A program made the position numbers and the translations under genes. A stretch of 63,733 nucleotides of DNA, the filler included, from Cercozoa sp. M6MM (taxonomy: Eukaryota; Protista; Endomyxa: Ascetosporea), in NCBI GenBank assembly GCA_040357565.1. It is 9 parts of 9 records of this genome, joined end to end, with 100 filler letters (N's around TTAATTAATTAA, not from the genome) between each part and the next. Parts side by side here need not be neighbours in the genome. Positions count along the whole stretch, not along the records: positions 1 to 19,142 come from JBDODJ010000218.1; positions 19,243 to 25,519 come from JBDODJ010000760.1; positions 25,620 to 26,754 come from JBDODJ010002155.1; positions 26,855 to 30,420 come from JBDODJ010001399.1; positions 30,521 to 33,856 come from JBDODJ010001497.1; positions 33,957 to 39,958 come from JBDODJ010000806.1; positions 40,059 to 44,340 come from JBDODJ010001182.1; positions 44,441 to 58,532 come from JBDODJ010000338.1; 1 more part is not named here. One strand, 5' to 3'. Numbering within the stretch: position 1 is the first letter of the stretch; each line of letters opens with the position of its first letter. The notes beneath the pieces are model-generated. The model saw only the letters and a list, made by a program, of their open reading frames with translations. It did not search any database and was not told where the DNA came from. Of this stretch, positions 105 to 52,125 are shown piece after piece.

Positions 105-1639
105 GAATCACAAGGGCAACAGTCGTACAGATCATGAGTCCGTACGGCAGATTGAACTGCGGACGCGGCACGTTGATTCCACGGCACACACGCGCCTACC
201 CAGGGGACAAAGGCGAGGGGATAAAGGGGGGTAAAAGAGGGTCAGGGATGGGAGTTAAGCTATACCATAAAGTCCCAGAACGGCACGGGTTCGTTGTTGG
301 TCACGATGAAGACCTGGCCGTTGACACCTGCATCCGGGTAACGAGGGGTAAAGAGGGGGGTAAATAGGGGGTTAAAGGGTGGGGTAAACTACACTTGTCG
401 CCAGCGAGCAGCGCATTGGCGGCCAGCAAATGCCCATAGGCGACGTTGCCAACGAAAGTGAAATCCGCGAGGTTGCACGCGTCGCCCAGCATCATGCGTG
501 TCTTGTTCTTTGCGCCTGTTACGCACACACAGGCAACACATTCGCGCGGAAGACACAGAAACCAACCAGTCAACTAGTCAGTTGGTCAGTCAGCACGACT
601 CACCAGTCTCAATCACGCGCGGGAAAAAATGCGGATCGTGCGGACCGAAAATTCCGCGCGGACGCACCACGGCGGCCATCACTTGTTCTTCTGCACTCAG
701 GGGGTTAATGGGGAGAGTTTAAACAAGGTAAAGTTGTGTCGCTCGACCGTACCAGTGGCAGCTTCGATCACGAGTTGTTCCTGCTTGAGCTTGCTCTTCT
801 CGTAGGCACCGACGCACACCTGGAAAAATCACGCTTTCAACAACTAAAGGAAAGAAAGGCAAGCAAAGGAAGCAAATGAAGGAAGCAAGTTAAGGAAGCA
901 GAGAAAGCAACGAAAGCAAGCCAAGAAAGCAACCTTTGGCGCCGGCGTGTGCTCATCGGCGTTGCTGCAGACCGACGTGTTGGCGGCATCGTCAATCACA
1001 CTGGCCGACGACGTGCACACCAGCGTGGCCTTGTTCTCCTTGCATGCTTCGATCACCAGCTTCGTTCCCTCGACGTTCACCAGCATCAGAATGCGCTCGC
1101 TCGCCTACCCACACCAAGCTTTGCAATACCGCAAGCCACAACAAAACAGAAAACTAAAGCGCTGAGCAGAGCGTACATGAGTCGGAGAAGGCGAAGCGAC
1201 GTGGAACACGACATCACAGCCTGCGACTGCGTTGAACACGTCCGTTTTGTTCGTCAAGTCACCCTGTCACCAGCAGAAACACTCATTACCGCAACGAGCA
1301 AGTAAAAGAAAGGCTCATCGAATCACCTGCACGAACTCAACGCGCTCGTTGTACTCAGTAACTCGCAGATCGATCACACGGACAAACGAAGCACCCGCCT
1401 GCAGCAGCTGCTCCACGATGTGCCGACCGACGAAGCCTGACGCACAAACCAATCAGAGTTGCAAAAAAATGGCGCGCTTTCGACGTGGTCAGAGCGCAGA
1501 TCTGACTCTGAAAACTCTGGGAAAACTAGGTTAATCAGAAGGCACTACCGCAACCGCCGGTGACCAGACAGCGCTTGCCACGCAGTTCGCTCAGCGAAGC
1601 CAGTCGCTCATTCAATCGCGCCACAGGAGAATCACTCAT
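105..1639 (-). CDS. Sterol-4-alpha-carboxylate 3-dehydrogenase (NSDHL/ERG26-like 3-beta-HSD), spliced; 3' end runs off the window
   Basis: Spliced exons give MSDSPVARL..CLVTGGCG/FVGRHIVEQLL (Rossmann TGGxGxxG), VNVEGTKLVIEACK, TSSASV, YEKSKLKQE, VRPRGIFGPHD, DFTFVGNVAYGHLLAA. Confidence 0.85.
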
Positions 1640-1825
1640 CTGCCTATGAAATTGTGTTAGACACGCTGTGGATACGCCAGACAGCACGATCGTGGAAAGC
1701 GACTGGTTTGACTGTCGGCTCGAGGTCCGACTCTGGCTCAGTGCTTCTGGTTGTTGGTTCGGCAGGTGCGTTTGTTGCATTATCGTACGCCTAATTGTGC
1801 TACTGCTGGAGGAAGGTGGTTACAG

Positions 1826-4361
1826 ATGGAGGAAGACCGGATCGGGGAATATCTGGACGATCAGAAAATCATCGAGCCGTGTTCCGAAGATTCTAGGAGC
1901 GTTCTCGCTTTCCTGAAGGACAAACTCGCCGTGTTGAGCCAAGACCCGAAGAACGAGACGGCGAACGCCGAGATTCATTCGAAATTATGGGAGCTGCTCT
2001 TGTTTCCGGAGTTGTTTCTGGAGGTGTTTCCGCAGGTTCACATGTTTGGACGACAGCGGTCACTGTATTGATACCTTCGATGCATGGATTTTGTTTACAG
2101 GTGGCACTGAAGGCAGCGTTTTGTACAGGAACAGCGCAGAGCTGCACCAGCTGGGCGGCTGCTCGAACCGCGAGAATGAGACACTCGTGCAGAGCATCAT
2201 TCGGCACAAGGACGTGGAGAGAGCTAACAACTGGGCCGACTCGTGTTTCTACCTGATCCACAATGACCCGAGAACTTTGTGCGTTTCTCTATGTGTCCAA
2301 TTGATATCCGCGCGGAAGTTTGTGTGGCGTGAACTTTAGACCACTCGCAGTAGCGTCGAAAGACGAGAGACTGCTGACGGCGCTGCTTCCGAGCCGTCGA
2401 AACCTCTTGGTACAGTTTGTATGGCTGCTTTACTTACCCCTCTATCATTCCCGGACCCGTTGTCTCTCTAGGTCAGGAGTGAAGAGAAGTTGCCCGGGAT
2501 TTTCGAAGCGTTGTTCGAGTTGCACTTTTCTGGCACCTGGCACAATGTCAACACATTGAATCTGGTACAGCACTCGTGTGTACCCTCATGTTTTCCTGCT
2601 GTTTTGAGGCTACATACCTCTGACCAGTAGGCTTTGGAGAGTATGATTGAAGTTCCAACACATCTTGGGACAGAATCGCCGCCGAACTCGCTATTTTTGG
2701 CTACTGTTGCACTGCGGATTCCCATGTACCTGTAGCATGTTCCTTCCTTTCATCCTTTCCTTCATTACTTTTCTTCCTTTCCTTCATTGCTTTTCTTCCT
2801 TTCCTTCATTCCTTTTCTTCCTTTCCTTTTCTTTCCTTTCTTCCTTTTCTTCCTTTCCTTTTCTTTCCTTTCTTCCTTTCCTTTCCTTTCCTTTCTTCCT
2901 TTCCTTTATTCCTTCCGTTTCTTCCTTTTCTTTCTTCCTTTCCTCTTCCTTTACTTCTTTATCTCCCTTCCTTTCTTTCCTTCTTTGCCTTCCTTCCTTT
3001 GCTTCTTTTCTTCCATCCTTTATATCCTTCTTGTTATTTAGGATCAAGTATGTGAGGGACGAGGACCCTGTGCGGAGTGCCAAACTACTCGTGAAAATGA
3101 CTCGCTCCTTTGTTCATGTACTTGTTGACTTTCCTCCTCTTTATTTCCTTTGACTGTGCTGTGTTATTGTCAGCCATTGTGGGTGTTCAATTCGCTGTGT
3201 GTCTGCGCGATTCACAATCGCGGCACGCCGAAGCAACAGCCGCTTTTGGCTTTCATCGAAGCGTTTGCTGACGTGTGTTTTTACTCTGTACACCCCCCCC
3301 CCCCCCTGTACCCTTTGCTCCTTGCAGTGCGACGAACTACGCGAGCTGTTCAGAGACCAGCGGCAGATCTACGGCATCACACCGCTGCATGAAGCCGCCA
3401 GAGAAGGCGACTCTGATATGATTCGATTCCTTTGCGAGCACATCTTGGACGCCAATATTGGTCTTAATCGGGTACAGCTTGGACACACAAGATAAGTCAA
3501 GGCAGAGTTACCTCGTGTATGTGAGTACACAGGGCCAGACGCCACTCGAGTCGTTGATAGGCGTGGCTGACGAAATGCGGCGCAACTTGGACGAATCTGC
3601 CGACACGCTGGAGCGACTTGACGCCGAGCCCTGTCAGTCCTCTTCGCGTTCAATACCCTTCTTAATCCCATGCCTTATGCGTGTTTCCCACAGGGTACTC
3701 CAGGATAAGAAAACGCGCAGAACGAGCACGTGTTCAACGCTTGCAAGACAGTATTGAAACCTCTCCACTTTCTTATCAGAAACATGTGCACTCATAAAAG
3801 TTTGTGTGTTTTAGTGATGGAAAGTCAGTACGAAACGAAGAAGGGAAAGTTAATGTCGGCTGCGCGAATTCTCCTGGATTTTGGTACTTGCTTTTTTCCA
3901 AATGGGCATTTGGGAAAGAATAAGCTCGGCGAATGCATCTGCGCAGGAGCCAAAGTGCGGTTGTTCGGCGAGTGGAACCACCTGCTGCGCGAAATGATGC
4001 ATCACGAAATCGCGGCTGTGGCTGAGGTATCGATAGCCTTTGGTCTTTTGGGTTGTCCATTCACTCCAACTATGGCGTGTTTTTCTGCGAACAGGCTGTG
4101 CTGGAGTACCGAAGTGGGCAGCCAGAGCTGTGCGCTGAAGTAGCAGGGCTTATCATGAACTATGCGCTGTGTTGTCCGGTGCCCTATGATTCAGTCAGTA
4201 TCGATATGGTTTCTGACACCTGACACCAGTCGTTTTGGATTCTGTAGGAACTCGGGGTCAACGAACGGTCCGTTGCGCGGCAAGTGCACGAGGTTTTGCA
4301 GCTCGACTGTGACGCAGCTTCCAGTACGTGTAGCGCCAGCGCGAGTCTAGGCGAGAGTTGA
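1826..4361 (+). CDS. Ankyrin-repeat protein, multi-exon
   Basis: Ankyrin motifs YGITPLHEAAREGDSDMIRFLCE and GQTPLES. Exon chain runs from MEEDRIGEY to ..ASLGES*; internal exon boundaries approximate. Confidence 0.6.
2741..3030. repeat. Polypyrimidine (TTCC/TTTC) low-complexity tract inside an intron of the ankyrin gene
   Basis: Seen directly; it explains the spurious F/S/L- and K/E/R-rich ORFs here. Confidence 0.9.
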
Positions 4362-50624: not shown

Positions 50625-51448
50625 TCAGTTTTGCAGACGTGAGCGTCGCGAACGACGACGGAAACCATCGCCACGGCTGCGAATGTCGTCCTGCGGGAAC
50701 TGTCCCTTCTTGTTGGCACTTGGGCTCGTTGATGTGCTCCGCGCGGTGTCGCGTTGGGTGTTTCCAGGCGAACGCTGGTTGCGCGGACTCTTCCACGGCA
50801 GAGGTTCGCAATCGGTCAGGCGCGACTTTGATGTCGCACTGCTACTGCTCCACCTGCGGGTAAATTTCTTTACAACTCACTGTTTAGACTAAAACCTCAA
50901 ACGCGACACAGTAAATTACCAAGAGCCACGATGTTCTTGCTTCGACAGACCCATCACTGCGAACTCGCGAGACAGGTCTGCCAACTTCTCAGGAGTGTTG
51001 AGTGCCGACTGAGAGGCAACAGAGATTGTCTTTTTGGGCGTCATAGTGGCGCTCGCGCTCGTGCCTTGATCAGAAATACTGCCACCGCTCTGCATCCCGT
51101 GCGCGTCCAGGTTCTGCAGATCCTCAGATGCAATGGTATCGGTGTCGCACGCCGACATCTTCGATCGAGCATCGGCTTCATCGTCCGACGCCTCGCTTGG
51201 GAGCTTGTGCAGAAACCGACTGCAGCAAAGTGAATGAGTTCAGAACTGAGTCATGAGTAGCGACAGAAGTTACCATTGGTCGCCATAGCGACACATTCCC
51301 GTTGTTTCACTAAATACCCCAAATGTAATTCACACAAGTCAATCCAATCCTATGGGAGAAATGAGGCGTAAATTTACTAGCTGAAGCAGAGACGGCGCCG
51401 AGGACTGTGCTTCTTCTCTATCGTCTTGCCCTGTGCCTTACGGTCCAT
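50625..51448 (-). CDS. Single CCCH zinc-finger protein (TIS11-type finger split over three exons)
   Basis: Splicing gives RLCFSY|ETTGMCRYGDQ|CRFLH, a C-x8-C-x5-C-x3-H finger that the ORF track misses. Confidence 0.75.
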
Positions 51449-52125
51449 CGCATTTGTTTGAGTGCGAGAAAGCTTCAACATGATCGTCTTTCAAGTTTAA
51501 TCTTTCGCTTGCACTCTAAAACGAAACACATTTCGTTCAGGCAAGACAGGCAAACTGAAGCGTGCTATGCCAACCGGTCTTTCCGGTTTGCAAGTTGCAA
51601 ATTGCAACAACACAAGGCTAAAACCGAACAAGGTGAAACGCACTAACTCAGTCGGTGCGGTCCAGGTGTACTATCGATGGAACTGCGTCAATACTTCAGA
51701 CAGACTATGAATCGCCAAAAACTCGTGCGGTTGCTGGTTTAGGGTTAGCAAACAGACACGACAGTCTTCCGCGCGGACGCAGTTGTTCAAACTCAAATTG
51801 ACAAACTGATGCTTCGTTTGACTGACTGGGGGAAGGACAAACTGGTTTGGAAACCCCGACAAACTGAAATATCGATTAACGACTATTGACAAAAAGTGAC
51901 GATCTTGGGTAATCCCAACCCTCGAACTAAGAATTTAGAGTACTGTAATACATTCGAGTCCTCGACTGTCAGGTGTCAACCTTAAATTTAATTGTTTGGT
52001 TTGTCTCAAAAGTGATACATCGGAATCGTTTCGCAGCTGTTTTGAGAAACGCTCTTCGCAGGCGTCAGCCAGCTAGGTTAATTTGACTGGGGTACATCAT
52101 TGTTCCAATCTTAGAGCGTCGAGAC

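Follow-up and report, generated by a model that had tools for sequence, protein, structure and literature searches.

An over-represented ten-base palindrome in coding and non-coding DNA of Cercozoa sp. M6MM and its likeness to HIP1

Introduction

The closest described counterparts of the word treated here are iterated palindromes of cyanobacteria and an over-represented palindrome of apicomplexans. The former comprise HIP1 (GCGATCGC) and the alternate highly iterated palindromes (HIPs) (PMC4390886 and PMC13756078, both in excerpt); according to the excerpts of PMC4390886, HIPs occur at 500-2500 per Mb, and HIP1 lies in coding and non-coding DNA and deviates at its outer bases. The apicomplexan palindrome, TGCATGCA, is bound by ApiAP2 proteins and is described, in the excerpts of PMC3734150 and PMC3505466, from non-coding and upstream DNA. 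The present analysis concerns another palindrome, TCCGCGCGGA, in a stretch of 63,733 nucleotides (the window, always meant at its full length) from Cercozoa sp. M6MM (assembly GCA_040357565.1), where it is present far beyond expectation in genes and spacers.

Other words provide a wider background. Bacterial DNA uptake sequences and Chi are non-palindromic and are tied to transformation or RecBCD. The everted CCG/CGG sites of fungal Zn2Cys6 proteins (PDRE) and the 10-bp CGCG palindrome of BANP are CG-rich, read by dimers and centred on promoters. Words iterated genome-wide regardless of coding are known from bacteria, and their origin is still argued. A eukaryotic case without natural transformation would separate the explanations based on uptake, on a methylase ratchet and on chromosome structure.

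Nine contigs make up the window, with N-padded stop-codon spacers at the joints, and two of these contigs have an internal gap of 100 N. All motif counts come from these 63 kb, the denominator for densities being 62,829 non-N bases, and any genome-wide statement is an extrapolation from them.

Over-representation of the palindrome

A preliminary description of this DNA had counted 15 exact copies of TCCGCGCGGA on seven of the nine contigs. All 15 positions and the contig count were confirmed; the contigs at 26855-30420 and 58633-63733 contain none. With simple repeats masked, Markov models of orders 0-4 trained with the motif included predict 0.05-0.10 copies, and models of orders 1-5 trained without it predict 0.04-0.14. 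The over-representation against a Markov null, which the same description had proposed as a check, therefore holds in the window and amounts to 100- to 400-fold (Poisson P ≤ 5e-15 for orders 0-5). Models of orders 6 and 7 trained with the motif predict 3.7 and 10.9 copies, because at these orders the models learn TCCGCGCGGA itself. The excess in the window is real.

TCCGCGCGGA is the top palindromic 10-mer of the window; the next two have three copies each, and both are simple repeats. The enrichment is nested and sets in at the 8-mer. Indeed, the 8-mer core CCGCGCGG occurs 22 times against 1.5 expected, and in 15 of the 22 copies the neighbouring bases are T and A. CGCGCG is found 64 times against 41 expected, an excess equalled by the 22 cases between C and G, and CGCG is at expectation (454 against 442), the inner core being enriched only within the longer word. 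The density is 239 per Mb for TCCGCGCGGA and 350 per Mb for the core 8-mer. CpG is not depleted, its observed/expected ratio being 1.10 across the window and 1.04 next to the sites.

Near-copies and flanking bases

One-mismatch variants had been described as scarce, about nine in number. There are instead 11, those at 34863 and 57327 having been overlooked, and they are enriched about 7-fold (1.62 expected). They are as follows, with the position of the mismatch in the word where noted.

541..550: position 2, putative intron
20171..20180: position 10, probable exon
22885..22894: position 1, probable exon
23728..23737: position 10, putative intron
26528..26537: position 1, exon of an acetyl-CoA transporter (Acatn) gene, by protein mapping
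26584..26593: position 2, exon of the same Acatn gene, by protein mapping
34863..34872: inner position 4, probable exon
35063..35072: position 9, probable exon
48888..48897: exon of a glutamate dehydrogenase gene, F-R-A-Q
50738..50747: position 10
57327..57336: inner position 5, probable exon of a phosphodiesterase gene (Pfam)

Nine of the 11 differ at the outer positions 1/10 and 2/9, where 0.76 are expected (about 12-fold enrichment), and two at the inner six positions, where 0.87 are expected. Two-mismatch words are barely above expectation (37 against 27). A change of CpG to TpG or CpA is present in none of the 11, about 0.3 such changes being expected by chance, so that the power of this comparison is low.

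The flanks are also constrained. The pyrimidine reported at position -2 is indeed there: 27 of 30 half-sites have it, compared with 809/1405 before TCC in the background (P=1.2e-4). The preference persists when one repeat copy is left out (25/28, P=3e-4) and recurs in the near-copies, where 10 of 11 intact half-sites have a pyrimidine (P=0.02). A further preference, for a purine at -3, is seen in 22 of 30 half-sites (background 588/1404, P=5e-4). The pattern RYN-TCCGCGCGGA-NRY, allowing one mismatch, has 16 matches against 0.26 in shuffles, a contrast to be read with the fact that the pattern was derived from the same sites. Taken together, the profile is one of graded tolerance: the inner six bases are nearly fixed, the outer two pairs are partly free and weak preferences extend to 16 bp.

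An origin of the word in hairpins or cruciforms was considered and rejected. The -1 and +1 bases pair in two of the 15 sites, the left and right flanks are no more complementary than chance, and only one of eight sites folds clearly better than shuffles. The non-pairing flanks and the poor folding favour a protein footprint over a hairpin.

Location of the sites

The sites were annotated by six-frame reading, Pfam and mapping of the source proteins onto the window. The exact copies are listed below.

653..662: coding exon of a minus-strand NSDHL-like gene, R-P-R-G (residues 174-205 of protein P0241 map to 697-602)
2307..2316: putative intron of a plus-strand ankyrin-repeat gene (hand-read GT-AG and in-frame stop)
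11502..11511: in copy 1 of a dispersed repeat, between convergent genes
14056..14065: probable exon of a minus-strand squalene-epoxidase-like gene, Y-P-R-G, just ahead of an FAD-binding stretch (gene name by our own reading of weak Pfam matches)
14222..14231: probable N-terminal exon of the same squalene-epoxidase-like gene, S-A-R-T (hand-read)
23185..23194: putative intron 23149-23210 of a chorismate-binding (ADC-synthase-like) gene
26250..26259: coding exon of the Acatn gene, S-A-R-I (protein mapping)
31457..31466: probable minus-strand exon, acidic low-complexity stretch, V-R-A-D (hand-read)
34265..34274: probable last exon of a minus-strand gene that has no Pfam match, F-R-A-E (hand-read)
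35179..35188: putative minus-strand intron, acceptor 9 nt away
35499..35508: probable minus-strand exon, F-R-A-D (hand-read)
36754..36763: putative plus-strand intron 36715-36771, acceptor 8 nt away
39417..39426: in copy 2 of the dispersed repeat, downstream of a plus-strand gene
40314..40323: probable last codons of a minus-strand gene, L-P-R-G-E-V-stop (hand-read)
51768..51777: probably intergenic, between divergent genes; the sole candidate promoter site (hand-read)

Eight sites are exonic (two by protein mapping, six by hand), four putatively intronic and three intergenic. Gene bodies hold 12 of the 15 and a probable 5′ spacer, by hand annotation, one; there is no promoter bias. The exonic sites occupy all three reading frames, giving S-A-R twice, R-A-D/E three times and P-R-G three times. 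The four intronic sites stop 8-23 nt short of the putative acceptor, and three of these introns are only ~60 nt long.

The genes of the window are spliced, with short introns, and microsatellites are abundant. Four protein records, P0001, P0121, P0241 and P0243, match the window and come from three of its contigs, the first three records being labelled as Cercozoa at their source. The closest other RPL7 has 77% identity, so that there is no close relative for comparison.

Many introns are low-complexity GGGGTAAA/TTTACCCC tracts, C-rich at their 3′ ends (for example 29800-29900, 31200-31280, 31590-31650, 33620-33760 and 35700-35750), and GGGGGGTAAA is the most enriched 10-mer of the window behind poly-C and TCCGCGCGGA. 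A region that we read as Skp1-like contains an internal duplication (60769-60847 and 61308-61388, 78% identity). Rfam and ARAGORN gave no match each over the window.

Origin of sites in coding DNA

Two exact sites and one near site can be aligned with homologous proteins. At site 653, R-P-R-G aligns without gaps to R-P-H-G of the human enzyme; the change from H to R rests on this single comparison, because the search for NSDHL homologues gave only the organism's own protein and one fragment. At site 26250, S-A-R-I stands, again without a gap, at columns with the consensus C-N-K-Y in 145 homologues (the anchor is present in 146 of 150 matches, one of which is the organism's own protein). S-A-R is found at these columns in one of the 145 and a motif-compatible run of four residues in none. 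The alignment across near site 48888 is gap-free as well. The A of its F-R-A-Q is present in none of 117 homologues, V being found in 105 of them and in the paralogue P0122. The following column has E in 73 of the 117, and E would complete TCCGCGCGGA.

Codon usage adds to this. Peptides capable of carrying the motif use TCCGCGCGGA in three of six cases against 0.10 expected, a figure which derives from 2278 hand-picked codons and is biased upward, three segments having been chosen for their sites. The word is encoded through rare codons, used 10-12% of the time. Given their gap-free alignment and rare codons, the two exact exonic sites 653 and 26250 likely arose by substitution.

The glutamate dehydrogenase that holds near site 48888 is of the NADP type (P0121, 48412-50347) and its paralogue P0122 belongs to the same organism. 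Among 177 conserved columns P0121 differs at 11, one of the changes being K to E at residue 166, and its named relatives are mostly bacterial among the matches listed.

The dispersed repeat and contigs of run X1

Two exact sites lie in a dispersed repeat, of which the window has two copies.

11294..11521, minus strand: copy 1, shared blocks only
39407..39545, plus strand: copy 2, shared blocks, with high depth on to ~39880

Blastn finds two matching segments between the copies, one of 88 nt at 82% and one of 70 nt at 76%. A 23-bp block identical in both copies encloses sites 11502 and 39417, and a second shared block follows further on. As copies of one repeat, these two sites leave 14 independent contexts among the 15. 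The remaining 13 sites have unique flanks, the best other pair sharing 11 of 20 flank bases. The summed depth of run X1 contigs over copy 2 is 46,000-90,000, against ~400 for single-copy DNA, with many deletion-type joints, and on these grounds the repeat is likely a multi-copy family. It is unclassified and consists of modular conserved blocks, one of them with TCCGCGCGGA; both copies stand just beyond the 3′ end of a gene.

The preliminary description had named an adapter or assembly artefact as a possible source of the word. The word is no such artefact: a separately assembled X1 contig covering 13925-14952 runs across sites 14056 and 14222 without a differing letter or a gap. Among the matches listed, the X1 pieces that reach 34265, 35179 and 36754 likewise show no other letter, and bridging by 31 bases is absent there. 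Since X1 may be the window's own source, this agreement is no biological replicate.

At two of the seven sites covered, the end of an X1 contig coincides exactly with the edge of the motif, namely at 35188 and at 36754 (36754/36783); fold-back chimeras, paralogues or real joins could each produce such ends. In X1 contigs the segment 34248-35188 reaches a depth roughly double that of single-copy DNA, which suggests a second copy elsewhere.

Other carriers and earlier reports

Sequence collections were scanned for paired sites, and such scans detect only motif pairs at the spacings scanned. For a 3-Mb genome at the density of the window, we estimate some four flanked pairs at the scanned spacing. 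IMG/VR gave 46 stretches with pairs at a gap of 0-30, mostly local repeats by eye, one stretch (L276) with a flanked pair at a gap of 140-170, and no match to the 23-base block of the repeat. JGI metagenomes gave at least 119 stretches with paired sites; among the matches listed, microsatellite runs like those of the window are present in none of 119, and the 36 loci of at least 8 kb comprise 27 without a further site, seven with one and two with nine. One of these, L067, was rejected as a carrier, its nine further sites being a local repeat. In GTDB, 110 stretches have paired sites, with flanks and titles for 80. Among 66 loci of at least 10 kb, 55 have no further site, eight have one, two have two and one has four, and none has dispersed sites with unique flanks at the density of the window. 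L188 and L194 were rejected because they are repeats with common flanks: L188:3866-10190 (Pseudomonas) and L194:10003-10640 (Thauera) consist of short repeated elements that have the same 10-mer at their centre. There is no other carrier among the GTDB, IMG/VR and JGI matches listed.

The literature search, outside which lay supplements and subscription papers, found no eukaryotic HIP-like word in coding DNA and no report on the over-representation of TCCGCGCGGA. Among the matches listed, no paper containing the 10-mer deals by its title with genomic over-representation, and the core CCGCGCGG has no occurrence. PMC5381614 proved a false lead, its "hip1" being Hip1R. The earlier statement that no eukaryotic equivalent is known has to be qualified: the ApiAP2-bound TGCATGCA of apicomplexans is an over-represented palindrome, though one described from non-coding DNA.

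Interpretation

The symmetric, graded profile up to 16 bp and the failure of the flanks to pair with each other point to a site read by a homodimer, and the indifference of the sites to exon, intron or spacer points to a role at the level of DNA. RYN-TCCGCGCGGA-NRY may therefore be the site preferred by a homodimeric protein that binds DNA at the level of chromatin, and would then be a landmark rather than a promoter element; we lean towards this reading tentatively and would not give it an even chance. The proposal of a HIP-like dispersed palindrome shaped as a homodimer site, already present in the preliminary description, is supported by the coding and non-coding placement, the outer-base deviations and the symmetric flanks. 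Its suggestion of a link to CpG methylation gains no support from the near-copies, at low power, or from the CpG ratio. Point substitution would create sites wherever protein and splicing constraints permit, and sites, once arisen, would be favoured. If mutation and selection are in balance, the log enrichments of about 5.7 for exact copies, 2.5 for outer variants and less than 1 for inner ones would equal the scaled advantage. The putative binder would open, position or anchor chromatin at intervals of roughly one to two genes. We infer the binder, its function and the genome-wide extent of its sites alike from this sequence.

Several points weigh against such a landmark. The sample is only 63 kb, every pattern used fits repair or conversion drive without benefit equally well, and the outer-base pattern is the same pattern on which Elhai's methylase model is based. 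Exact and near sites together are clumped, being uneven among contigs (P=0.003) and having eight gaps of ≤350 bp against 3.3 expected (P=0.006); for exact sites alone the same tests give P=0.07 and 0.29. An evenly spaced landmark would not predict clumping. No spacing period is convincing, the best being 18.7 bp (P=0.052, from 14 pair distances), and a 56-bp ladder across four gaps is apparent only and not the best period. The amino-acid evidence is anecdotal: the glutamate dehydrogenase shows 11 departures among 177 highly conserved columns in any case, the Acatn loop is likewise non-consensus beyond the motif, and NSDHL offers one informative comparison. For the first two reasons an effect of the motif on proteins is only suggestive. 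A Pfam scan of 43 frames of the window gave no DNA-binding or methylase family within it.

In its fullest form the system would be a true HIP-type one in a eukaryotic nucleus, and this we consider doubtful. A dedicated reader or writer would install a 16-bp palindromic word at thousands of positions in exons and elsewhere, with enough force to affect which codons and amino acids are chosen; the word would be a mark of self DNA or a signal of chromosome architecture, and the resident repeat family would bear it as well.

The methylase-repair ratchet proposed by Elhai for HIP1 starts from a methyltransferase which would mark a core such as CGCGCG or CCGCGCGG. Repair would keep the strand gaining the next motif base, and sites would grow outwards without any function. 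The deviations at outer bases and the enrichment of the inner core only inside the longer word would be explained as in HIP1, and HIPs can reach 10 bases (PMC4390886, in excerpt); TCCGCGCGGA contains three CpGs, and DNMT6 orthologues have been reported in Rhizaria, according to the excerpts of PMC9998398. The ratchet is nonetheless unlikely, in that CpG transitions are lacking among the 11 variants (at low power), the CpG ratio is close to unity beside the sites and in the window as a whole, and 239 per Mb is under the density of HIPs. Typical methylases read a narrower footprint than a 10-bp core with three flanking bases, and the preferences found here extend that far.

Conversion drive would do without a benefit to the cell. 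A bound protein would shield the motif allele from breaks or make it the repair template, and motif gains would spread by gene conversion. This would account for the exonic spread in any frame, the rare codons, the non-consensus residues and the local clumping. We regard it as quite unlikely, given that no motif variant is listed for X1 contigs over two stretches with seven sites, although contigs drop rare alleles.

The graded palindromic profile is typical of dimeric factors, and CGGA-type half-sites recall fungal Zn2Cys6 sites. Ordinary transcription-factor sites, with a dimeric factor at many intragenic enhancers, like ApiAP2 on TGCATGCA, must accordingly be weighed. The precedent of an over-represented word in apicomplexans is, in the excerpts of PMC3734150 and PMC3505466, one described from non-coding, upstream DNA, whereas hand annotation here assigns one site of the 15 to a probable 5′ intergenic stretch and 12 to the bodies of unrelated housekeeping genes, and such an explanation appears decidedly improbable.

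Seeding by a transposon, in which the word would be a functional part of the dispersed repeat and the scattered copies its relics or targets, seems very unlikely. Two of the 15 sites do belong to one repeat family, in its best-conserved block, the depth of the repeat is very high and X1 contigs end exactly at the motif edges 35188 and 36754. Conversely, flanks are shared only between 11502 and 39417 and are unique at 13 sites, the aligned exonic sites show no indel against homologues, and a single contig reads continuously across a pair of sites separated by 166 bp, without a joint in between. In addition, the motif seems internal to the element rather than terminal, judging from loose contig ends. 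Chance, codon bias or a library or assembly artefact, for which the small sample from one metagenome-assembled genome and one run might speak, is hardly credible in view of the Poisson probability, of sites in introns, spacers, all frames and rare codons, of their in-frame position within conserved proteins and of their unchanged state in the separate X1 assembly.

Comparison with known systems

Should the preferred reading of a homodimer-bound landmark be true, a poorly sampled supergroup would possess a DNA-reading protein still to be described. If the density of the window were maintained throughout, thousands of sites would be present in a genome some tens of Mb in size, enough for decisive population-genetic and footprinting tests.

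PDRE and BANP sites resemble TCCGCGCGGA in shape only, and they are not known to us to saturate exons. DNA uptake sequences and Chi are closer in distribution, being words of 8-10 bases found genome-wide, genes included, once per few kb. Unlike TCCGCGCGGA, they are non-palindromic, and we know of no transformation or RecBCD-type word machinery for the organism of the window.

The apicomplexan TGCATGCA shares with TCCGCGCGGA the condition of an over-represented palindrome in a protist nuclear genome; its binder is known, that of TCCGCGCGGA is putative. In the excerpts of PMC3734150 and PMC3505466, TGCATGCA lies upstream and serves stage-specific transcription, whereas about half of the TCCGCGCGGA sites are exonic and one of 15 is a candidate promoter site.

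The likeness to HIPs has several sides. A single GC-rich palindrome stands out among oligomers, as in the excerpts of PMC4390886. Sites are placed in coding and non-coding DNA and enter without indels, as far as two exact sites and one near site of the window can be aligned; most deviations are at the outer bases (9/11), and enrichment of the inner core is confined to the longer word. The differences are as follows: TCCGCGCGGA is another word, without GATC, its host is eukaryotic nuclear DNA with introns, its density is lower, at 239 per Mb in the window against the 500-2500 per Mb given in the same excerpts, and it has a spaced RYN flank preference. TCCGCGCGGA works like HIP1 but is not HIP1, membership failing on word, host and density. 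HIP-type words themselves are known from cyanobacteria, and a HIP-like word in eukaryotic coding DNA is a real and testable novelty.

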